DNA of 32,000 nt from Candidatus Heimdallarchaeota archaeon (GCA_030614005.1 JAUWKS010000011.1:34498-66497), one strand, 5' to 3'; counted from the first letter of the stretch, positions 275-10,982 are shown. The notes: generated by a model from the sequence alone, not told the origin. Made by a program: numbers and translations.

Positions 275-3091
275 TCAGTCAATTCGTAATAATTTAATTT
301 CGAAGGGATTGAATGTTAATGTACACATGTTCTTTGAAATTTCAGAACTTTGTTTTATTGTCCCGTCAATTTTTACATCAATGAATTTACTAAACTGTTT
401 ATGAAATTTTATTCCAGATTGTATACTCTCAGAAGACAAATTGAAAATTAACACTTGAAGTTTTCCATCACGAATTCTCATTGAAGACAATCTTAAATTC
501 TGGTTTTCAATTTCAATTAATGGTTTTGTTAAATCTTTTAAAGGCATGCTGTCTTTAAAAACAACATTTTGCGTTTCCAGACAGAATGCTTCAGAGTGAT
601 CTGCACTGAACGTTATTGGCTTCTCCTTTGAATGACACAAGAAGCTGTATCTAAATTGATACTCTTGTCCTAATTCTTGTGCTCCTGGTGTTTCTAAATA
701 TGGACCTGCATGTATTGGTCTCTCTGGGAAATCTGATCTCGAGAGAAACCCAATAGAACGAATAAGAGTTAAAGCTAAAATCGATTTATCTACCAATTCA
801 ACTTCTGGTAATCCTTTGTTTATTAGCGTAAATGCAGTCTGGTCTTTTTCTTCTGATTCCACTCGAATGAATCGTTTTTGTGGTTGTATCCCCGATGGCT
901 GCTCAACTGCATCTTTGTTTTCAATAGCTTTTCCAAGTCTCTCTGTGTAACCAAAATGTGTTGATGTTAAGGTATTTGTCGTTTCAAAAGGCATCGGAAA
1001 ACAAATTCTAAATCTGTGGTCCTTTGCTGTATTGACAAGTTTGGTAGTGATATCTATTCTTGGTAAATCTCTATAAAATCGGAATACTGTTGTAATGATT
1101 ACTTTTGTTTTACCTATTCTCTTTTCTCGTTTTTCGTTAACTTTCTTAAAGGTATTAAAAATTAATTCTTGAGTTATTTCACTTACGAGTGCTCCTTTCA
1201 ATGTAATTCTCCTTTTAACCTTTGATACTTTCGTGACAAGTGGGCCTAGACGTCCAAATGTGTACTCATCTCCACGATCACCCCAATCTTCAAAATAATG
1301 GAGATTGCTAAATTCTCTTTCTAATCCTTTATCGTACAAATTCAACGAGCCATTTTTATTAAATGTAACATCAAAGAATTGATTGCTTACAGAATTTTTA
1401 GTTATTGTTATCGGATTTGTATCAGCTTTTTTAGCTTCTCTTTTCAAAGTTACTTTTGAAAATGACCAAGGATTCAAAGGTAACAAAGCTATGTAAGATT
1501 GTTTACTTCCTAAAGATACTTTGACATGAAACTTTTTGAATTCCTTCCTATCTAATATTTCAATCGCTTGATGCTGCATTGCTTTAACATCAAATTCTCC
1601 AATTGGTTCCTTACCACAAATCAATGAAATATCTAACACTGTAGGATCAGTATATCTTGGAGCAAATGATACTTCATTAATGTAAATATCCATTAGCCTT
1701 CTACCGGGTAGCATTTTCAAACCTGCTCGAGTGATTAATGGACTCATAGTGCTTTCAAAAAAGATATCTTCTGATGAAGTTATAGCTTGAATGTTGTATT
1801 TCTCTCCCGTTGGTGTTTCGATTGATTTGATTTCATTGTCATCCAAAGAAAATTCCACACACATTGGTATCTTTGCATTATTAGTTGGATTGAAGAGCAA
1901 ACCTGAAGAATCACTTTTCTTTGTTTCCATTTTTTGTATCATTTCAAGTGAATCCTGAATTACAGATTCAACGATACCTTCTGCCCATGAATAGCGCGAT
2001 TTCATCTCATCGTGTGTTTTATCGACTGAACATCCACATATAGAATCATGTGGTTGATTTTTTAGTAACCATTTCCAAGCGAGATTCAAATATGAAGTTG
2101 GATATTCTTTAGCCAGATAAAAATGTAAAATTGCGCTTATTGGTTCTCCATGATGGATCAACAAATCTTCAATTTTTGTATCCCATTGTTTTATCCACAT
2201 TCTTGCAGAATATGTATCCTGTAATAAGGGTGCTTTAACTGATGAGCGAAACTCCCCATAATAAATTGCTGGTGAGTATTTTTCACAAGCAATCAAATCT
2301 TGTAGTTTGAGTATATACTCTTCCATTAGACCTATTCTTAGCTTCAATTTGTCATTTGATAATTTTGGTATTTGTTCAATCAAAAACGTTTGAGGTAACT
2401 GGTGATCTGTACCATTCATTAGAAGATAATAAGGAAATGGTGAATAAGGTTTCAACTCTTTTATTTTCTCATCAATTAGCTCCTTTACTAATTCAATATT
2501 ATCAGATAAGCCTGCAAAATTGCCATAGCTAAAGGGAAGATAGTTGCCTAAAATTTGACTCTTTGATTTTGGGTGACTTTTCCAAATAAAAGGAACTTTT
2601 GTAATTTCAGGACCAACACCTCTCCACATAACTGTTGCTGTAAAATTAGTTAAATCCGATAAAAGCTGTGGAATGGCTCGAGTATGACCGAATTGGTCTG
2701 GTAAATAACCGACTTGCATCTGAGGGATATCTAAACTACTTGCTAGATCAAAACTCACTTCAAGATTGCGGATTAAACTTTCTTGACCTACTAACCATTC
2801 ATCTGGAAGAATGTACCAAGGTCCAACAGAAATCTTTTTTTCACGTATTAATTTGAGGAGTCTTTCTCTATTTTCAGGTCGTATTTCGAAGTAATCTTCA
2901 AGAACAATTGTTTGCCCATCAAGCATAAAATAATACTCTTTCTTCTCCATTATCTCGAGTAATTCATCAATTAATTTAACGAGTTTGTATCTAAAGTGTT
3001 GAAATGGCAAATACCACTCTCTGTCCCAATGTGTACTTGGTATAATTATTACTTCAGCACTTTCTTGATCAGCTTGGTTCTTTTTACTCAC
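275..3091 (-). CDS. Glycoside hydrolase family 38 alpha-mannosidase (MngB-like), cytoplasmic
   Basis: N-terminal STHWDREWY (Zn-binding H-x-D), LDGQ, VGPWYILPDEWL, nucleophile motif YLPDQFGH, NGTDHQ and middle-domain QPHDSICGCS. GTG start with upstream GGAG; no signal peptide. Confidence 0.93.
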   Translation of the reverse strand: MSKKNQADQESAEVIIIPSTHWDREWYLPFQHFRYKLVKLIDELLEIMEKKEYYFMLDGQTIVLEDYFEIRPENRERLLKLIREKKISVGPWYILPDEWLVGQESLIRNLEVSFDLASSLDIPQMQVGYLPDQFGHTRAIPQLLSDLTNFTATVMWRGVGPEITKVPFIWKSHPKSKSQILGNYLPFSYGNFAGLSDNIELVKELIDEKIKELKPYSPFPYYLLMNGTDHQLPQTFLIEQIPKLSNDKLKLRIGLMEEYILKLQDLIACEKYSPAIYYGEFRSSVKAPLLQDTYSARMWIKQWDTKIEDLLIHHGEPISAILHFYLAKEYPTSYLNLAWKWLLKNQPHDSICGCSVDKTHDEMKSRYSWAEGIVESVIQDSLEMIQKMETKKSDSSGLLFNPTNNAKIPMCVEFSLDDNEIKSIETPTGEKYNIQAITSSEDIFFESTMSPLITRAGLKMLPGRRLMDIYINEVSFAPRYTDPTVLDISLICGKEPIGEFDVKAMQHQAIEILDRKEFKKFHVKVSLGSKQSYIALLPLNPWSFSKVTLKREAKKADTNPITITKNSVSNQFFDVTFNKNGSLNLYDKGLEREFSNLHYFEDWGDRGDEYTFGRLGPLVTKVSKVKRRITLKGALVSEITQELIFNTFKKVNEKREKRIGKTKVIITTVFRFYRDLPRIDITTKLVNTAKDHRFRICFPMPFETTNTLTSTHFGYTERLGKAIENKDAVEQPSGIQPQKRFIRVESEEKDQTAFTLINKGLPEVELVDKSILALTLIRSIGFLSRSDFPERPIHAGPYLETPGAQELGQEYQFRYSFLCHSKEKPITFSADHSEAFCLETQNVVFKDSMPLKDLTKPLIEIENQNLRLSSMRIRDGKLQVLIFNLSSESIQSGIKFHKQFSKFIDVKIDGTIKQSSEISKNMCTLTFNPFEIKLLRID

Positions 3092-3312
3092 TATTTACAT
3101 TTCTCCGGAAAATTCATTTCATAATCTTACTTTGACTGAATAGCTTCATTCAAAGATACTCTCAAATTATTTTCTCTAACCATTAACTAATCACCAATAA
3201 CAATTAAAAAAATTGCTGCTATAAATTTCTCTTTTCAAAACCACATTCTTACACTTAGATTATTAAGAATAAATGATTTATAATTTAGCATAACACTCAA
3301 GATGGTTACACG

Positions 3313-4179
3313 ATGGTTGAAATTACTGAACAGAATGGTTATTTTCAAACCTTTGATAGTATGGAGATGTATTATCATTGTTGGCTACCAACAGAATCTG
3401 AAGAAAAGAAAACAAAAGCAGTTTTTGTTGGAATTCATGGTGGAGAAACACACGCTCAAACCTTGAGAACTGTTGCTGAGTACTTTTCAAGTAAAGGTTA
3501 TCCCTTTTATGCTTTTGATCGTAGAGGGCATGGACATTGTGAGAAAAATGATCGAATGTATGTCAAAGATTACAATTATGTTGTTGAAGACATTAAAGCA
3601 TTCATCAATTTTGTTAAGGAAAAAGAAGAAGCCGAAAAAATCTATCTTATTGCCCACAGCAATGGAGGAGCATATGCAATTATTGCTGCAACAAGATTTC
3701 CTGAAATAATTGATAAGCTAATTCTCTCATCTCCAAGTATAAAATTGGTTGGAAATGATTTTGCCATGTTTATTCAAAAAACAGCAGTTAGCTTTTTGGG
3801 AACAATAGCGCCAAAACTAACTTTGCCTACAGTTATTAAACCTGAAGAATTAGTAAAAGATTCCGATATACTTGAAAATCGATTTCGAGATGAACTTATT
3901 TATAGAAGATTTACTAGTCGATGGGGTCGCGAGTTAATTAGGTTTCAAAAGGATGCTGATAAAAACATTCATCGTTTAGATGTTCCAACTTTATTCCTGA
4001 TAGGAACAGATGATCGTATTGTTGATTCTTACTATACTATGAAGAAATTCGAAACCATTGATCAAAAAGATAAAATGAAACTAAATATCTACGAAGATTA
4101 TTGGCATGAACTCTTTAATGAATTGCCTGAAAAAAGAGTCAAAGTATTCCAAGACGTTGAAGAATTCATAGAACTATAA
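3313..4179 (+). CDS. Alpha/beta hydrolase, lysophospholipase/monoacylglycerol lipase-like
   Basis: HGGGE-like oxyanion segment (IHGGETH), FDRRGHG, nucleophile elbow AHSNGG, catalytic Asp in GTDDRIV and His in WHELFNE. Confidence 0.9.
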   Translation: MVEITEQNGYFQTFDSMEMYYHCWLPTESEEKKTKAVFVGIHGGETHAQTLRTVAEYFSSKGYPFYAFDRRGHGHCEKNDRMYVKDYNYVVEDIKAFINFVKEKEEAEKIYLIAHSNGGAYAIIAATRFPEIIDKLILSSPSIKLVGNDFAMFIQKTAVSFLGTIAPKLTLPTVIKPEELVKDSDILENRFRDELIYRRFTSRWGRELIRFQKDADKNIHRLDVPTLFLIGTDDRIVDSYYTMKKFETIDQKDKMKLNIYEDYWHELFNELPEKRVKVFQDVEEFIEL

Positions 4180-4231: not shown

Positions 4232-5026
4232 TTATTTTCCATTTTTACTTGATTGAACATCTGTACAGATAAAAGCATTGTAATGTTTTGGTTTTGTGAA
4301 ACCTAGCTTTAGAGCTAATTTTGCTGAGATTTCATTATCTGCATCCCAATGTGGTGTCAATCCTCTTTCTAGGCTTTCTTTGAGTAAAGCTGCGGAAGCA
4401 ATAGTAGCAAATCCTTTTCGACGATATTTTGGGTCATCATCTGTTAATACCTGGATTTCAAACTCATCATCAAAAATAGGCATTGCAGCCGCTACAATAC
4501 AAACTACTTTTTCTCCTTCTTTAATACAATAAGCCAAACCTCGATGAACGAAAGCTTCTGGAGAGTCAAACCAAGGTAGAAATGCCGCCGCAAGTTTGAT
4601 ATTCAAATTATAGACTGTTTCAACATCTACTTTGTGTAAAGTAAACCCATCTGCAAGTTCTTTTTCAAGTAATTTGTTCAAATGTTCTATGTTTAATTTT
4701 GAAGAAGAAAACTTGATCCGTGGATACGGAGTGAGATTTATCTGACTCATTGCAAATTTTGCCCATTCTTCATTTGGAAAAATAACCAAACGATTTTCTC
4801 GTATATTTTCTAATATTGCTTTTGCGTGAATGGATTTAACATTACCCGTTACAATTTCAAAGACCTTATAGGACATTAAGGCAACTTGTGGGTTTTTAAT
4901 ATCATCAACTAATATCCTGCCATTCCCTTCTCTTAAAACGGTTTTTGAAACAATGAACAGATAAGCATTCTGTTCGAATAAAGGGATGAGGGTAGTTTGA
5001 TTTTTAGCTGGAAATTCAATTAACAT
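4232..5026 (-). CDS. GNAT family N-acetyltransferase
   Basis: C-terminal GNAT fold with FEIQVLT...YRRKGFAT (acetyl-CoA motif A), PHWDADNEISAKLALKLGF. GTGAT SD upstream of the ATG. Confidence 0.85.
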   Translation of the reverse strand: MLIEFPAKNQTTLIPLFEQNAYLFIVSKTVLREGNGRILVDDIKNPQVALMSYKVFEIVTGNVKSIHAKAILENIRENRLVIFPNEEWAKFAMSQINLTPYPRIKFSSSKLNIEHLNKLLEKELADGFTLHKVDVETVYNLNIKLAAAFLPWFDSPEAFVHRGLAYCIKEGEKVVCIVAAAMPIFDDEFEIQVLTDDDPKYRRKGFATIASAALLKESLERGLTPHWDADNEISAKLALKLGFTKPKHYNAFICTDVQSSKNGK

Positions 5027-5159
5027 TGTTAATCACTAACTTACATTCCATTGCTCCTTAAAAAAATATAGTTATTTTCTGGTTTGACACAGTAAAAAAG
5101 AGGCAAAGTTAAATGTGTATTTGAACATTCTCAAAAGTTGAGAAGAGGGAAAAGAAAGT

Positions 5160-6881
5160 CTATTTATCCCAGAATTTCTTTTCAGTATCTCTTGATTTTA
5201 CTTTGTTTTCCGGATCTGATACTAGAGCTACAGTTTCACCATATTTTGAAGATGATTTTCTCTCTCTAAATTGCACTAAAATTGGGATTCGGAGTGCAGC
5301 ACCTGAAAGAACGCCTGTTCCTCTCTCAAGATAAGGTAATAATCCAACATACCGTTCAGCAAATCCAGCAAGAATATCTTTAGCAACTAGGATATCTGAT
5401 TGTTCAGTAATTCTTAGAATAAGTTTAGAGTTACATTGTGAAAGAATGTCTCTATCTAGACCACTAGGTCTTTGACTTACAATACCCAAACCAGCACCCA
5501 TTTTTCGTCCTTCTCGAGCGAACCATTCAATGGAACGTTTTGTTATTGATTCTCCTATTGGAATAAAACGATGTGCTTCTTCAATTAATAGAAAGACTCT
5601 TTGAATTTCCTTGCTTTCCATTGTTCTTCTCAACCGATTTAAGTAACTCGAGACGAAAATCCTTCTCGCACGCTCATCCATGCCTGGTTGACTAACATCT
5701 AAAATTGTTATTTGTTCTGCAGAGAAATTATTCTTTACGCTGGATAAATTACTCAAATCTTTCTTTTTATCTTGGCTTTCTACTCGGCGGTACCTTGCAT
5801 CGTATTCTTGTATGATTGAACCTGAAAGATGACAGATGGCCCCATTCAATTCGGTGAAAAAGCCCATTTTTCTAAACACTTCAAGCTTTCGGATAATTGG
5901 TTTTCGACTGCTACCATCAATAATATTGTTCTCTATCCCGAATCCCAAGAAGCCGTCTATGTCATAACATATTCCAAATCCGAAAGTATCTCTAATGCCA
6001 TACCAAGTATTTTCAAGCTTTTCTTTTTGAGGACTAGTTAAATCGTACATAAAATTAAACATTTCAGAAGTAGATATCTCTGAAAAAAGCATAGTAACAG
6101 GTTCAAAAGTAAAATTGCTAGCTAGTTTCTTAGACATTTTTTCCATGGAGCTGAAATACCTGGGGTGATAACGATTTGGATATAATACTTTGACGAAATA
6201 TTTCGGCAAAGATGCTGCCCCTTTTGGTCCTTTAGTATGAGAAAGTCCCCAATATTCACCATGAGGGTCAACAATTAAAGTAGGTAAACCAAACTCTGAA
6301 AACTCTTCAATGATTACTCCAGCAGCATAAGATTTTCCACTGCCTCTAGAACCAAAAATGGCTAAACCATCTGAACCCAAAGTGTTTGGATTTAACTTAA
6401 CATCCATTTCTCCCGAGTGTTCAGCAAAGAAACCGATGTCCATTGCACCTTTTTCTTTTCCAAATACTGCCAACTTTAGTAAATCATCTCTGCATTCAAA
6501 TACCATTGAACCCGGACTAACCCAAGCATTTGGAGTTGAAAGGTCTCCATCATGGGAAATATTTGAAACTAGAATTACTTCAACAACATGGAATTCAGTA
6601 AATTCCAACATTGATCTCGACTCAAGGGAGCGTCGAAGTCTATCCATCCAGAATTTTGCATACCGTTCATCACTCAATTGAGGATTCTCAGCACGAATAG
6701 TGATTATCCTACCAATCAAAGTATTTCCATTAGCTAATGGAATACTAACGAAATTTCCCTCAACGATGTCTTCATGTTCTACATTTTCATCTAAACGCAC
6801 AATTATCCGTTCTTGATCAGATGAAACACCTAAGACAAATCCAATTTTTTTTGCAGGTTCTGGCAATGAATTAACCACCAT
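5160..6881 (-). CDS. HerA/FtsK-family ATPase with N-terminal HAS-barrel-like domain
   Basis: Walker A GSRGSGKS, IVDPHGEY, Walker B LLIEEAHRF, AREGRKMG arginine-finger motif, SQRP and SQCNS. The N-terminal beta-rich region (IGFVLG...GNFVSI...IGRIITI) resembles a HAS barrel. No transmembrane segment. Confidence 0.88.
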   Translation of the reverse strand: MVVNSLPEPAKKIGFVLGVSSDQERIIVRLDENVEHEDIVEGNFVSIPLANGNTLIGRIITIRAENPQLSDERYAKFWMDRLRRSLESRSMLEFTEFHVVEVILVSNISHDGDLSTPNAWVSPGSMVFECRDDLLKLAVFGKEKGAMDIGFFAEHSGEMDVKLNPNTLGSDGLAIFGSRGSGKSYAAGVIIEEFSEFGLPTLIVDPHGEYWGLSHTKGPKGAASLPKYFVKVLYPNRYHPRYFSSMEKMSKKLASNFTFEPVTMLFSEISTSEMFNFMYDLTSPQKEKLENTWYGIRDTFGFGICYDIDGFLGFGIENNIIDGSSRKPIIRKLEVFRKMGFFTELNGAICHLSGSIIQEYDARYRRVESQDKKKDLSNLSSVKNNFSAEQITILDVSQPGMDERARRIFVSSYLNRLRRTMESKEIQRVFLLIEEAHRFIPIGESITKRSIEWFAREGRKMGAGLGIVSQRPSGLDRDILSQCNSKLILRITEQSDILVAKDILAGFAERYVGLLPYLERGTGVLSGAALRIPILVQFRERKSSSKYGETVALVSDPENKVKSRDTEKKFWDK

Positions 6882-6979
6882 TAAATCAAACAGACTCTTC
6901 TTTAATTTAACTTTCTGATTAAATTAAATAAATGCTCGCTTTTTCAACTAAAAATCAAAAATGATGATTTATTGCTAAA

Positions 6980-7288
6980 TCATCTATTCACAAGGTAATA
7001 ATAGAACCACTTAATGTTCTTAAAATAATTATGAATAGTTTCTTTTATTGAAATTTCAATTGAATTATTGCAACTTGAAGAGCAAGAATCGCTACAAGAT
7101 TCACTACATGACTCACCACAAGAAGTGCCACAACTTGTACAACATCCTTGAATTGCACCAGTTATTGCAAGCACAACTAAAACAATAATTGTAACTACAA
7201 CTACAATTGGTAAAATAATAGCAAAGATAATTATGAGAATTCTTTTCTTTCGCTTCTTTTTTAATTCTGGATTTAAATCTTCAGGCAT
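6980..7288 (-). CDS. Cys-rich single-pass membrane protein, paralog 2 (102 aa from ATG 7288)
   Basis: KKKRKKR, then a ~27-residue hydrophobic helix, then CCTSCGTSCGESCSESCSDSCSSSCNN (8 Cys) and an aromatic amphipathic C-terminal helix. The ATG start is preferred over the longer ORF-track start. Confidence 0.8.
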   Translation of the reverse strand: MPEDLNPELKKKRKKRILIIIFAIILPIVVVVTIIVLVVLAITGAIQGCCTSCGTSCGESCSESCSDSCSSSCNNSIEISIKETIHNYFKNIKWFYYYLVNR

Positions 7289-7378
7289 TTTTTTTACCCT
7301 AATAATAACTAAAGAGAATGAAAGCGCCAATTATTAAAAAAGTTTTACTAACGATAGTAAACAAATCTGAAAGGGATT

Positions 7379-7867
7379 TTAGAATCTAAAAATCCCTAAT
7401 AAATAACTAAAAATCCATTTTACAAGTTTCAGTTGCGCATTAATTGTTTCTTTTAGAGATATTGTTGCAATGCTATTGTTACAATCACAGGTGCAATTAT
7501 CACATGAACTTTGACAAGCATTATCACAACTATTTGAACAGCTTTCAGAACAGCTGTCACCACATGAGTTACAACAGTTCTCACCACATGAGGTACAACA
7601 GCTTTCCATCATACCAATAGCTGCTAATACTATAATTACGACAACTCCAACAACAAGAAGTATAGGTAAAATGATTGCAAAAATGATAATTAACCATATT
7701 TTCCTGCGTTTTTTCTTCTTCATTAGATCTTCGCTTTCGATAATTTCGCTTTCTCCACCAAATCCTTGGTGTTCTATTGGTGGGGGAGTGAACTGTTCCT
7801 CTGAGGTATCTGGTAATTTCTCCTCAGTATCATCAAAAGGATTATCAAATTGATCTTCTTTAGACAT
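7379..7867 (-). CDS. Cys-rich single-pass membrane protein, paralog 1 (162 aa from ATG 7867)
   Basis: Acidic/Pro-rich N-terminus, KKKKRRK, transmembrane helix, 14 Cys mostly at 4-residue spacing, and an amphipathic C-terminal helix. Clearly homologous to 6980-7288 (IIIFAIILPI; CNNSI...S[LI]KETI). AGGA SD precedes the ATG. Confidence 0.82.
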   Translation of the reverse strand: MSKEDQFDNPFDDTEEKLPDTSEEQFTPPPIEHQGFGGESEIIESEDLMKKKKRRKIWLIIIFAIILPILLVVGVVVIIVLAAIGMMESCCTSCGENCCNSCGDSCSESCSNSCDNACQSSCDNCTCDCNNSIATISLKETINAQLKLVKWIFSYLLGIFRF

Positions 7868-7993
7868 TTTTTGCAATCCTATAAATTGTAATTTTATAAA
7901 CTCAAATATGTTAACTGCTAATTGTTAATCTTCATTGGTTAACAATTAATAATTATTTTGTATAAATACAGTAAAAAGATTAGCTGTGATGAT

Positions 7994-8707
7994 TTAGGTT
8001 GTTTTTTTGCCCTTAGTTTGAGCTTGTTTCTGTGCTTTTTGTAGTTCTTCATCTACTATTTCATGCACTTTTCGAATTCGAATGTTTGTATTTCGTATTG
8101 GTTCACAAGGTGGATCACTATTAGCTAAAGGACAATCGATACATTCTTGTCTATTTGCATTATGTCCTCTACTCATACCATATAATTGATTACCTGCTAA
8201 TAACAGCATAGAAAGTATAATGCTTAACCACCAATAATATTTGAAGACAGCAACAATAATCGCTCCAAATGCTCCTATGCCAAACCCAGCTGAAAATCGA
8301 AAGATTGATTTCAACCATTTGTTCTTGACTCTTAGGAAGAGATGACTAATTGACAAACCAAAACCGGCAAAAGGAAGGATGCTTATTACATAGATATTGT
8401 ATCTGAAAACTGAGGGAACAGCCAAGAATAAAATAAGGTACAACAATATCGCAGAATAGATACTCGTACAACCTATACAGAAAATAAACGAGCCGATTTT
8501 AAAATAATGATTTTCATATCTGCTGCAAGCTGGGTGATGCCCTAGAACTTTCCAAGCACGTATTTTAAAGATCAACCACATTGCATGAAAAGGAGTTCTC
8601 TTCTTAAGCTCAACTTCTTCTGACATATATGGACTAAATACTTCTTCTGTTGCAATGCTTGCCTCTGATTTTACTTCGGATAGTTCTTCAGCGTTCATAT
8701 TAATCAA
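7994..8707 (-). CDS. DUF2085-like integral membrane protein with His/Cys motifs
   Basis: GHHPAC-x4-HYF-x7-CIGCTSIY resembles the DUF2085 pattern (CHQ...CxRCxGIY). About 4 TM helices follow, then C-terminal CIDCP-x6-C. Start is TTG 8707 or ATG 8698. Confidence 0.6.
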   Translation of the reverse strand: MINMNAEELSEVKSEASIATEEVFSPYMSEEVELKKRTPFHAMWLIFKIRAWKVLGHHPACSRYENHYFKIGSFIFCIGCTSIYSAILLYLILFLAVPSVFRYNIYVISILPFAGFGLSISHLFLRVKNKWLKSIFRFSAGFGIGAFGAIIVAVFKYYWWLSIILSMLLLAGNQLYGMSRGHNANRQECIDCPLANSDPPCEPIRNTNIRIRKVHEIVDEELQKAQKQAQTKGKKTT

Positions 8708-8887
8708 TTTGTTATTCTTTTGTTAATTATCTTTATCCATTCGAGTCTTTATTGTTAATTTTTCAAAAATAGCTGTATTTCTATGTGATTTTGAATATGA
8801 GCGAAGCACTCTTAAATTTAATAGCAATCTTCATTTAGGAGAAGGACAATATACCATTCCACTATTAATAGTATAGAAGTGATCACA

Positions 8888-9118
8888 ATGACCGCTGTTG
8901 ATAGATATTCCATCACATACAAAGAAGAAGTTAAGCATTTTAACAATCATGACGAGGCAATTATTTACGTGTTAAACTTACCACCAAGCACAGATAAAAT
9001 TAATATAAAAAAGTACGGTAGTTGGCAGAAAGTTTTGATTGATATTGTTGGAGAAATTAACGAAATCCAAAGATTAGTTAAGGTAGTTGGTGGTTGGAAA
9101 TCTTACGCAAAGAAATAA
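8888..9118 (+). CDS. Small hypothetical protein (76 aa from ATG 8888)
   Basis: ORF fills an otherwise empty gap, has protein-like composition and a GTGAT SD-like sequence just upstream of the ATG. No recognisable motif. Confidence 0.65.
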   Translation: MTAVDRYSITYKEEVKHFNNHDEAIIYVLNLPPSTDKINIKKYGSWQKVLIDIVGEINEIQRLVKVVGGWKSYAKK

Positions 9119-9275: not shown

Positions 9276-10982
9276 ATGAAAAATGAACTGGTAATAGAAC
9301 AGCTAACTCAAATAGCTGATCTTTTGGAGATTATTGGTGAAAGTGTCTATAAAATAAGGGCTTATCGTAAAGCTGTTGATTCTTTACAGCAAACTGCTGA
9401 GGATATTGAAGTTATTGTTCAAGAAAAACGAGTAAAGGAATTACCAGGCATCGGTGATGCAATAGGTGAGAAAATCAAAGAGATAGTTGTAAATGGAAAA
9501 ACAACCTACTTGGATAAATTAACTCAAGAAATACCTGTAGAAGTTACTAGCTTAATGAAAGTTGAAGGTATAGGCGGAAAAACTGCTGGTAGATTATACA
9601 AAGAATTAGGTATTAAATCTATTACTGGTCTTGAAGAGGCAATCGAAAATGGCCTGTTAGCTAAACTTTCTGGATTCACTGAAAAGAAAATAGCAAAAAT
9701 CACTCGAGCATTGACTTTTGTAAAATCGGAACGGAGACCTCTTTTCAAAATGATTCCAATAGCATTAAATTTGAAGAAATTCTTGGAAGGGATAGATCTC
9801 ATTCAATCTGTGGAAATTGGTGGTTCCATTCGAAGAAGAAAATCAACAATACGAGATATTGATTTACATGCAATTGGAAAAGAAAAAGATTTTGAGCAAA
9901 TTATGGATATTTTCTCTCAAATGGATGATGTAGAGGACATTGTTGTCAAGGGTCCACTTAAAACAACTGTTAAACTTATGACTGGAATAAACGTAGATCT
10001 TCGAGTCTTGGAAGAGCATTCCAATGGATCTGGTCTAATTCATTCTACGGGTTCTAGAAATCATACCGTAAAATTACGAACAATTGCAGATAGGAATAAT
10101 CTGCTTCTGAATGAGTACGGTTTATTTGATGGAGAGGGGAAAACACTCATTGCTAGTGAAACCGAAGAAGAAGTTTACAAGGCAATGGGGATGAGTTATA
10201 TTCCTCCGGATATTAGAGAAGATCGTGGAGAAATTGAGCTGGCACAGAAGAATTCTCTGCCGGATTTAATTAACCTAGAAGATATTAAAGCTGATTTTCA
10301 TGTACATACAAATTGGTCTGATGGGAAATCTGTAATTCATGAAATGGCAGATGCAGCAGCAGAAAGGAATTATGAATATATCATTATTACAGACCACTTC
10401 GGTAAGAATCCGATCTACAAACCAATGAACGAAGAAAAATTAACGAAACAAAGAAAAGCTATTGAACAAATAGCCCAAAGTTCTTCAGTAGAAATATTGC
10501 AAGGGGTTGAATGTGATATCCTGAAGGACGGCTCTCTTAGCATTTCAAACAAATTAATGAAAGACTTGGATTTTGTTATTGCATCCATTCATTCGATTTT
10601 TGATATGCCTGAAGAAGAAATGACTTCGAGAATTATTACCGCAATGGATAATGAATTTGTACATGGTATCGGTCATCCTACTGGAAGACAATTAGGGAAA
10701 AGAGGAGGATATTCAATAAATTTCTCAAAAATAATTGAAAAATGCATTGAATCAAAGACATTTCTAGAAATAAATGCTTATCCGAATCGATTGGATGTAG
10801 ATGATAATGTTGTATTTGATTTCAAAAATAAAATTGAATTCTTCATTGGAACAGACAGTCATCAACATCAACAGCTAAAAAATATGGGTTATGGATTAAA
10901 CATCGCTCGAAGAGCCTGGTGCGAAAAGAAGAATATATTGAATACTCTGACCTCTAAAGAGCTGCTAAGAAAATTAGATTGA
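9276..10982 (+). CDS. polX: DNA polymerase/3'-5' exonuclease PolX with C-terminal PHP domain
   Basis: 8-kDa domain YKIRAYRKA, HhH motifs (LPGIGDAI, VEGIGGKTA), GSIRRRKSTIRDID with both catalytic Asp, third Asp in VDLRV, and TGS. PHP motifs HVHTNWSDG, ITDH, GVECD, SIHS, GHPTGR and GTDSH. Confidence 0.95.
   Translation: MKNELVIEQLTQIADLLEIIGESVYKIRAYRKAVDSLQQTAEDIEVIVQEKRVKELPGIGDAIGEKIKEIVVNGKTTYLDKLTQEIPVEVTSLMKVEGIGGKTAGRLYKELGIKSITGLEEAIENGLLAKLSGFTEKKIAKITRALTFVKSERRPLFKMIPIALNLKKFLEGIDLIQSVEIGGSIRRRKSTIRDIDLHAIGKEKDFEQIMDIFSQMDDVEDIVVKGPLKTTVKLMTGINVDLRVLEEHSNGSGLIHSTGSRNHTVKLRTIADRNNLLLNEYGLFDGEGKTLIASETEEEVYKAMGMSYIPPDIREDRGEIELAQKNSLPDLINLEDIKADFHVHTNWSDGKSVIHEMADAAAERNYEYIIITDHFGKNPIYKPMNEEKLTKQRKAIEQIAQSSSVEILQGVECDILKDGSLSISNKLMKDLDFVIASIHSIFDMPEEEMTSRIITAMDNEFVHGIGHPTGRQLGKRGGYSINFSKIIEKCIESKTFLEINAYPNRLDVDDNVVFDFKNKIEFFIGTDSHQHQQLKNMGYGLNIARRAWCEKKNILNTLTSKELLRKLD

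Follow-up and report, generated by a model that had tools for sequence, protein, structure and literature searches.

Do four neighboring genes of a Heimdallarchaeota archaeon, three for membrane proteins and one for a HerA-family ATPase, form a single membrane-associated system? The genes lie on the minus strand between positions 5,160 and 8,707 of a 32,000-nucleotide stretch of DNA (the window), which is located on contig C68 of a metagenome-assembled genome, G000, of an Asgard archaeon (~33% G+C, 90% complete). Close protein relatives carry Heimdallarchaeota labels. An earlier note, made from the sequence alone, had described four consecutive, co-oriented genes with gaps of 90-130 nt, and had proposed that they encode a Ced-like or otherwise new translocation module. 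All four open reading frames (ORFs) are present in the arrangement described, with gaps of 98, 90 and 126 nt, and among the window ORFs scanned there is indeed no NurA, Mre11 or Rad50. We conclude that the four genes probably represent two unrelated units, which are neighbors only in this one taxonomic order: one member of a split HerA/NurA-like pair, and a membrane module. Comparisons were made with an Asgard set of 151 genomes from 52 genera; the order to which the window belongs is represented in the species set by 12 genomes only (11 from one genus and 1 from a second genus).

The ATPase gene (5160..6881, minus strand) encodes a protein of 573 amino acids (aa) with a HAS-barrel-like N-terminus and a RecA-like core. 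The HerA central domain (DUF87, PF01935) is matched with 68 bits (cut-off 23.2) and, in a search of the genome, with 70 bits, and the best solved relative is the HerA of Sulfolobus (4D2I, E 2.8e-26, alignment from residue 13 onward). The earlier assignment to the HerA family is therefore retained. The Pfam HAS-barrel match stays below threshold (14.8 bits, cut-off 25.2), and we infer the barrel from an alignment of the N-terminus with 4D2I (residues 3-183). The motifs Walker A (GSRGSGKS) and Walker B (IEEAH) and the arginine-finger region (SQRP) are intact and invariant in the family alignment; judged by these motifs, the ATPase is catalytically intact. A hydrophobic-window scan found no hydrophobic or transmembrane (TM) segment, in agreement with the statement in the note that a CedB-type anchor is missing. 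Models of characterized HerA types are not reached: the canonical repair equivalogs NF040819 and NF040937 score 128 and 121 bits (cut-offs 970 and 800), and the anti-phage models NF042943 and NF042944 score 67 and 78 bits (cut-offs 800 and 850). The PADLOC HerA models did not discriminate, as canonical HerA outscores the window HerA on all of them.

The window HerA is a paralogue and not the canonical repair HerA. Proteins of the window type, 80-96% identical, are found in 11 of the order's 12 genomes; the twelfth, which is the least complete (64%), gave a weak fragment only. A second HerA-like gene, coding for 542-574 aa, is present in at least 7 of the other 11 genomes. In the three genomes G152, G160 and G161 this second HerA matches PF01935 with ~140 bits and sits in a canonical herA-mre11-rad50 operon (for example L012:4059-10092 on G152:C6; likewise in L013 and L014). 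The corresponding region of the siblings, including the flanking GT87-like and 203-aa genes, is unmatched in the G000 assembly. Because the whole region with its flanks is absent from an assembly that is 90% complete, the missing operon is probably an assembly gap rather than a gene loss. In a quick maximum-likelihood tree of 107 HerAs, the operon-linked HerAs of the siblings fall in the opposite half of the tree. The window clade is joined by P0021 (36% identity) with a Shimodaira-Hasegawa-like approximate likelihood ratio test (SH-aLRT) value of 100, and together they join a 34-row clade from Njord, Jord, Loki-group and other Asgard archaea (SH-aLRT 98).

Members of these clades have a conserved partner. 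At four loci in the P0021 and 34-row clades (P0021, P0044, P0026 and P0048), an overlapping gene for a protein of 479-512 aa precedes HerA; the four upstream proteins are mutually homologous, have a winged-helix N-terminus and carry no precomputed Pfam matches. The genome of the window encodes a protein of the same family (G000:C57:6987-8495; 502 aa), which is 38% identical over 521 residues (E 4.6e-95) to the partner of P0021, the nearest outgroup. A profile of the partner family, searched against the Asgard set, found the protein in 18 genomes besides G000, which with G000 amounts to 12 of the 52 genera (11 beyond its own). In all 18 genomes the partner gene lies directly upstream, and on the same strand, of the HerA gene that best matches the window HerA, and the 15 best matches of the window HerA in the set are all preceded by a partner. 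Adjacent pairs are located, for example, on G006:C3 (partner 461756-463156, HerA 460267-461634), G017:C34 (partner 4260-5660, HerA 5783-7153) and G102:C61 (partner 2770-3549, HerA 1268-1741). The last genome, which belongs to the class of the window, has in addition a canonical nurA-herA pair on contig C16; in the sister families f2 and f4, canonical nurA and herA genes often lie side by side. Two distinct HerA/NurA-type pairs thus coexist in Asgard archaea, and the window HerA belongs to the second type. The ATPase, which the earlier note had called stand-alone, stands alone within the window and not in the genome, where the NurA-like partner gene is found elsewhere.

The C-terminal part of the partner has a borderline similarity to NurA. 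The Pfam NurA model (PF09376) is matched by residues 296-475 of the G000 copy with 21.6 bits against a cut-off of 21, and by 10 of 18 members of the partner family (best E 3.7e-6). Several orthologues carry the NCBI label 'DNA double-strand break repair nuclease NurA'. Two motifs similar to the aspartate motifs of NurA, ISASDAS and IRDGPIVPH, are conserved in the copies of the order and in the partner of P0021. An Atlas feature search gave a weak lead, a cluster with NurA in 17% of its members (score 0.82). A Pfam NurA scan of the 151 genomes is uninformative on the partner genes, and only strong canonical NurAs are among the rows listed. According to a 2026 review, NurA homologues of Asgard archaea are uncharacterized, some of them multi-copy, and often have long N-terminal extensions (PMC13748450); the extended N-termini are consistent with the 502-aa partner, which the review does not test. 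Complex prediction with full-length HerA and residues 76-502 of the partner, each with an alignment, gave an interface score (ipSAE) of 0.00 in both runs, and was counted neither way. The sole clear Pfam NurA of G000 is another protein, of 357 aa, on contig C31 (L007:7971-9044), and is unlinked to any HerA throughout the order.

In the order of the window the two genes of the pair are separated. HerA and the partner are on one contig, 26-31 kb apart, in G152, G153, G155 and G160. In G000, colinearity with G152 indicates that C57 begins where C68 ends, with the matches ~200 bp apart, so that the partner would lie ~32 kb from HerA and ~7 kb past the right end of the window. Of the 12 genomes in the order, 8 gave a partner match. 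Both proteins are highly similar within the order (HerA 80-96%, partner 73-95% identity); for the neighboring genes the corresponding identities are 51-59% (the four-TM protein described below), 34-41% (the first of two cysteine-ladder proteins), 47-52% (GNAT) and 59% (family-X DNA polymerase, PolX). The window HerA gene looks like a conserved core gene. Some relatives of the pair elsewhere are found near TIR, PRTase, MmeI-type methyltransferase, SAVED or Cas6 genes, and one is beside ribonucleotide reductase; gene scans of the window found no defence genes around HerA in this order.

Signals between the genes point in the same direction. A box resembling a transcription factor B recognition element with a TATA element (BRE/TATA; GCGAGCATTTATTTAA, 6924..6939, minus strand) lies ~45-55 nt upstream of the HerA ATG, and its core RGNTTTATTTA recurs at this position in 4 of 6 related loci; the box is the probable promoter of HerA. 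A hairpin, TGATTTA-GCAA-TAAATCA, followed by T-runs (6950..6982, minus strand), overlaps the stop codon of the second ladder gene. A hairpin with a T-run after this stop codon occurs in 4 of 6 loci (the window and three others), with differing sequences, and is a probable terminator. Because of the conserved box before HerA and the hairpin with T-run after the ladder gene, separate transcription is suggested. In the other two gaps, a T-run follows the stop codon and an AT-rich box (7329-7344 and 7890-7903) precedes the start codon, which suggests four monocistronic units. A scan for sigma-70 promoters and intrinsic terminators stayed at the level of shuffled sequence, a method unsuited to archaea.

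The three membrane genes had been described as a DUF2085-like four-TM His/Cys protein and two small, single-pass, Cys-rich paralogs; their start codons were refined from orthologues. The four-TM protein (7994..8698, minus strand, 234 aa) is a conserved neighbor of the ladder genes. Its AlphaFold2 model is confident (predicted local distance difference test score, pLDDT, 92) and contains four TM helices, and the motifs HHPxCSxYxxH...CxGC and, at the C-terminus, CxxC...C are invariant, so the description as a four-TM His/Cys protein is confirmed. The conserved residues are H57, H58, C61, H67, C77, C80, C189, C192 and C201 (numbering starts at the TTG, 8707). The model and the positive-inside rule predict that all of them are cytoplasmic, as are both termini, and the outer loops have only 3-8 residues. 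We considered whether the protein could be a DsbB/VKOR-like oxidase of the ladder, which is unlikely given this predicted location of the Cys and His residues and the short outer loops.

As in Pfam DUF2085 (PF09858), a His/Cys motif followed by CxGC is located at the start of TM1 and there are four TM helices, and the model shows moderate likeness to Atlas clusters that carry DUF2085 (TM-scores 0.44-0.61). However, the Pfam score is 18.5 bits against a cut-off of 25, distant relatives of the protein are likewise sub-threshold (17-24 bits), and a profile search places it in a wide unnamed family (466 matches at E <= 0.001) with the signature AHHPxC..H..CxGC and a C-terminal CxxC..C. Close relatives (45-100% identity) come only from this archaeal group. 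Foldseek retrieved nothing from the PDB at E <= 0.001, and a wide VIA-align search gave generic helical bundles only, the best being a designed protein (Z 8.3); these structure searches show that a match to a known fold is lacking, and not that the fold is novel. A literature search for the function of DUF2085 found nothing functional. The genome encodes two distant DUF2085-like paralogues, at C16:9412-9879 (E 8e-20) and C39:2779-3273 (E 6e-19) against the family profile.

Both ladder proteins have a single TM segment and share 50% identity and one common architecture, in agreement with the earlier description as single-pass paralogs. Cys ladder 1 (7379..7867, minus strand, 162 aa) consists of an acidic N-terminus (net charge -14), the cluster KKKKRRK, the TM segment, which is long, a CxxxC ladder and a tail; it contains 14 Cys and nine CxxxC motifs, and the K..KW amphipathic/hydrophobic tail is conserved. 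Cys ladder 2 (6980..7288, minus strand, 102 aa) has a short N-terminus, a K/R cluster, one TM segment, a ladder of 8 Cys with six overlapping CxxxC motifs, and the K..KW tail. The N-termini are predicted to be inside, which places the acidic CxxxC ladder in an extracytoplasmic position. An Atlas feature search with ladder 1 found nothing. Like the targets described by TIGR04117 (Cys-Xaa-Xaa-Xaa repeat radical SAM targets), the ladder proteins are small, with a TM-like segment followed by CxxxC repeats; however, their scores of 29.6 and 32.9 bits fall below the cut-off of 50, and no radical SAM/SPASM gene is among the window ORFs scanned. Ladder 2 is absent from G157 and G161, and some other genomes have a partial match or an in-frame stop: the gene looks degraded in L008:7569-7742 (a truncated call of 57 aa), G155:C55:10966-11163 and G160:C14:207210-207533 (the latter two with in-frame stops).

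The ladder genes track the DUF2085-like gene and not HerA, because they adjoin it both in the order of the window and in a second family. Outside the order, strong matches to the ladder profile are restricted to genus g5 of family f2 (5 genomes), and each of them adjoins an orthologue of the DUF2085-like gene. In the three g5 loci that were fetched, the two genes are convergent, the pair is located between an amidohydrolase gene and a Hef-like helicase gene, and there is no HerA or NurA-like gene. Clear ladder genes (11 genomes of the order and 5 of g5) thus all adjoin a DUF2085-like orthologue. Conversely, the HerA/NurA-like pair is present in 18 genomes in which a clear ladder gene was not found, and outside the order HerA is never syntenic with the membrane genes. 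The proposed synteny of HerA with the membrane genes therefore fails outside the order, the membrane pair being found in f2 without this HerA type. The idea of a partnership between the thiol-rich proteins and the His/Cys membrane protein gains support, with adjacency in two families and in two orientations. Next to the ladder gene in g5 lies a Hef/FANCM-like superfamily 2 helicase (1WP9-like, E 2.5e-12; L032:7310-9085 on G123:C20, and L033 and L034). This is a second DNA-repair-type ATPase beside the membrane pair, which is probably a coincidence. In genera g2, g4 and g7 and at a second DUF2085-like copy in g5, a conserved membrane ORF of 93-98 aa with the motif FINCFTVV is found directly upstream, and on the same strand, of the DUF2085-like orthologue (L035:3632-3922 and L038:3684-3974, with small ORFs in L036, L037 and L039); it may be a small partner that replaces the ladder proteins.

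We propose that the window HerA serves as the motor in a second HerA/NurA-type pair, distinct from the canonical one. If it works as characterized HerA-NurA complexes do, the 502-aa partner would form a dimer into which a HerA hexamer drives double-stranded DNA, and would consist of an N-terminal winged helix and a C-terminal NurA-like nuclease domain. The genes of the pair, adjacent in other Asgard archaea and overlapping where the ends were inspected, would have drifted ~26-32 kb apart in this order. The role of the pair could be either repair or the degradation of foreign DNA. In the second unit, the DUF2085-like four-TM protein and the single-pass ladder proteins probably form a membrane complex. 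With the ladder predicted outside and the His/Cys cluster inside, contact would be made via the TM helices or the acidic cytoplasmic tails. We speculate that the complex is a metal- or thiol-binding surface array, anchored or organized by the four-TM protein.

Several observations weigh against these proposals. The NurA assignment of the partner is borderline: sister-clade partners are without the two motif aspartates in one alignment, hhalign of the partner family against the 357-aa NurA of the order was negative (probability 0.2), and a profile search of solved structures with the partner family gave no NurA and only a chance match to flagellin. The AlphaFold2 model of the partner, from an 18-row alignment, has a pLDDT of 45 and is confident only at the N-terminal winged helix. 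The association of HerA with the partner is a probable one, drawn from gene context. The four genomes of the order without a partner match are 64-84% complete. The promoter and terminator calls rest on sequence, in a genome of 33% G+C. Within the order, the four-TM gene, ladder 1, ladder 2 where present, and HerA are colinear and co-oriented wherever the contigs allow, and there may be a secondary, lineage-specific link between HerA and the membrane proteins. Finally, DUF2085-like orthologues without a ladder neighbor occur in g2, g4 and g7 and as the second g5 copy (like P0154), and residual synteny could account for the neighboring membrane genes in the two related families.

How do other explanations account for the same data? 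It is very improbable that the four genes form one membrane system, a Ced-like apparatus for DNA transfer or an envelope translocon in which a HerA hexamer docks on the membrane proteins and powers transport. In the Ced system, small membrane proteins do cooperate with ATPases of the HerA/VirB4 type, and here HerA, the four-TM protein and the ladders are all confined to narrow lineages, with colinear and co-oriented genes in every genome of the order that could be checked. However, the flanking GNAT gene, 79-aa ORF and PolX gene are equally syntenic within the order, which makes the colinearity unspecific. In 18 of 18 other genomes the HerA subfamily is accompanied by a dedicated gene for a soluble partner, a gene that is also present here, and the tree groups the ATPase with HerAs that have NurA-like partners. 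The membrane pair exists in f2 without this HerA, a promoter-like box and a terminator-like hairpin separate HerA from ladder 2, and the ladders are single-pass proteins rather than VirB2-like hairpins. The ATPase has no TM segment, is unmatched by the CedB model and scores 77 bits against a cut-off of 600 for CedD. The Ced-like proposal of the earlier note is therefore not supported. The alternative that the window HerA is the working repair HerA, paired with the 357-aa NurA on C31 and with Mre11-Rad50, the 502-aa protein being unrelated, is improbable as well. It would explain why this is the best HerA match in an assembly in which a herA-mre11-rad50 operon was not seen, why it is very conserved, and why its best NCBIfam and PDB matches are canonical archaeal HerAs; the 357-aa NurA, likewise, is unlinked to any HerA in the order. 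Yet at least 7 of 11 other genomes carry a second, more typical HerA, beside mre11-rad50 in all three that were checked. The absence of the operon region with its flanks from G000 points to an assembly gap, the tree puts the window HerA in the partner-linked clade, and G102 has both pairs in full, with a separate NurA type for each HerA.

For the membrane unit, a serious contender is that the DUF2085-like and ladder genes adjoin only through leftover synteny and that their products do not cooperate, which we consider possible but less likely than not. The two families with the pair come from a single class, DUF2085-like orthologues exist without a ladder neighbor (see above), ladder 2 is missing or partly matched in several genomes, and the His and Cys residues of the four-TM protein face the cytoplasm while the ladder is predicted outside. 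Against this stands that the genes remain adjacent in all 11 + 5 genomes with clear ladder genes despite a switch from tandem to convergent orientation and differing flanks. A bolder reading, to which we give only tentative weight and which we think somewhat unlikely, takes the membrane genes as an undescribed surface module of the Heimdall group, for instance a metal- or sulfide-binding or redox-active Cys array, which perhaps recruited HerA secondarily. The winged-helix/NurA-like protein and HerA would then be a distinct, Asgard-wide system for nucleic-acid processing or defence and not a copy of the repair complex. We retain the interpretation of two unrelated units, a split HerA/NurA-like pair and a membrane module.

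Compared with the archaeal HerA-NurA systems of Sulfolobus (4D2I) and Pyrococcus/Thermococcus, the window HerA has the same HAS-barrel-like N-terminus, RecA-like core, Walker A and B motifs and arginine finger. Its partner has a Pfam NurA match with DxS- and DG-type motifs, and in relatives lies directly upstream of herA, as nurA does in the sister families. The differences are the score far below the NF040819 equivalog cut-off (128 against 970 bits), ~55 additional residues between the two Walker motifs when compared with 4D2I, a position outside the mre11-rad50 operon, where siblings have a separate HerA, the ~500-aa partner with its N-terminal winged helix and borderline NurA similarity, and the ~32 kb between the genes of the pair. 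In the two-gene defence systems SIR2-HerA and DUF4297-HerA, a HerA ATPase gene is combined with an effector gene (PMC11291478, PMC11472057, PMC11514289). The window-type HerA resembles these in the pairing with an effector-like gene, in the defence-type neighbors of its relatives and in its patchy spread (12 of 52 Asgard genera). It differs in scoring below the anti-phage cut-offs (78 and 67 against 850 and 800 bits) and in having a NurA-like partner instead of SIR2 or DUF4297, neither of which was found next to the window HerA in a Pfam scan of the window ORFs; in this order, moreover, HerA is found in all 12 genomes, conservation of the two genes is strong, and their surroundings are not of the defence type. 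The Ced system of the Sulfolobales (CedA, CedA1, CedA2 and CedB) also has a HerA/VirB4-superfamily ATPase gene beside genes for small membrane proteins. Here, in contrast, the ATPase lacks an anchor and a CedB match and has another conserved partner, and the small proteins are Cys ladders.

Other genes of the genome touch on these units. Three further long HerA/VirB4/CedD-like ATPases (630-968 aa) are encoded on C109, C104 and C9, all below equivalog cut-offs. Divergent from the DUF2085-like gene lies the 79-aa ORF (8879-9118, plus strand), which has counterparts of 65-66% identity in G153 and G160 and no family match; an 85-aa gene that is similarly placed beside P0154 has no homology to it. 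It is followed by a gene for a family-X DNA polymerase with a C-terminal PHP domain (9276-10982, plus strand, 568 aa); G160 likewise has PolX close to the cluster (59% identity), but the L008 and L010 genomes do not. On C57, a 502-aa ORF without Pfam or PDB sequence matches (L021:5277-6785, minus strand) is divergent from the NurA-like gene, on the other side of which are two ArsR-type helix-turn-helix genes. The 357-aa NurA gene on C31 has as neighbors genes for a family-B DNA polymerase (PolB), an Arf-family small GTPase (330 aa, with a long C-terminal extension) and a TPR protein.

The analysis removes, as unsupported, a tempting candidate for a 'Ced-like' translocon in Asgard archaea, and puts two testable objects in its place. 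The first is a second HerA/NurA-type pair, which about a quarter of the sampled Asgard genera would have and whose nuclease-like partner includes a winged helix; in one order the two genes are separated and yet evolve slowly. The pairing would indicate which HerA belongs with which NurA type. The lineage-restricted membrane pair, with its unusual periodic cysteine ladder, provides a second object for testing.

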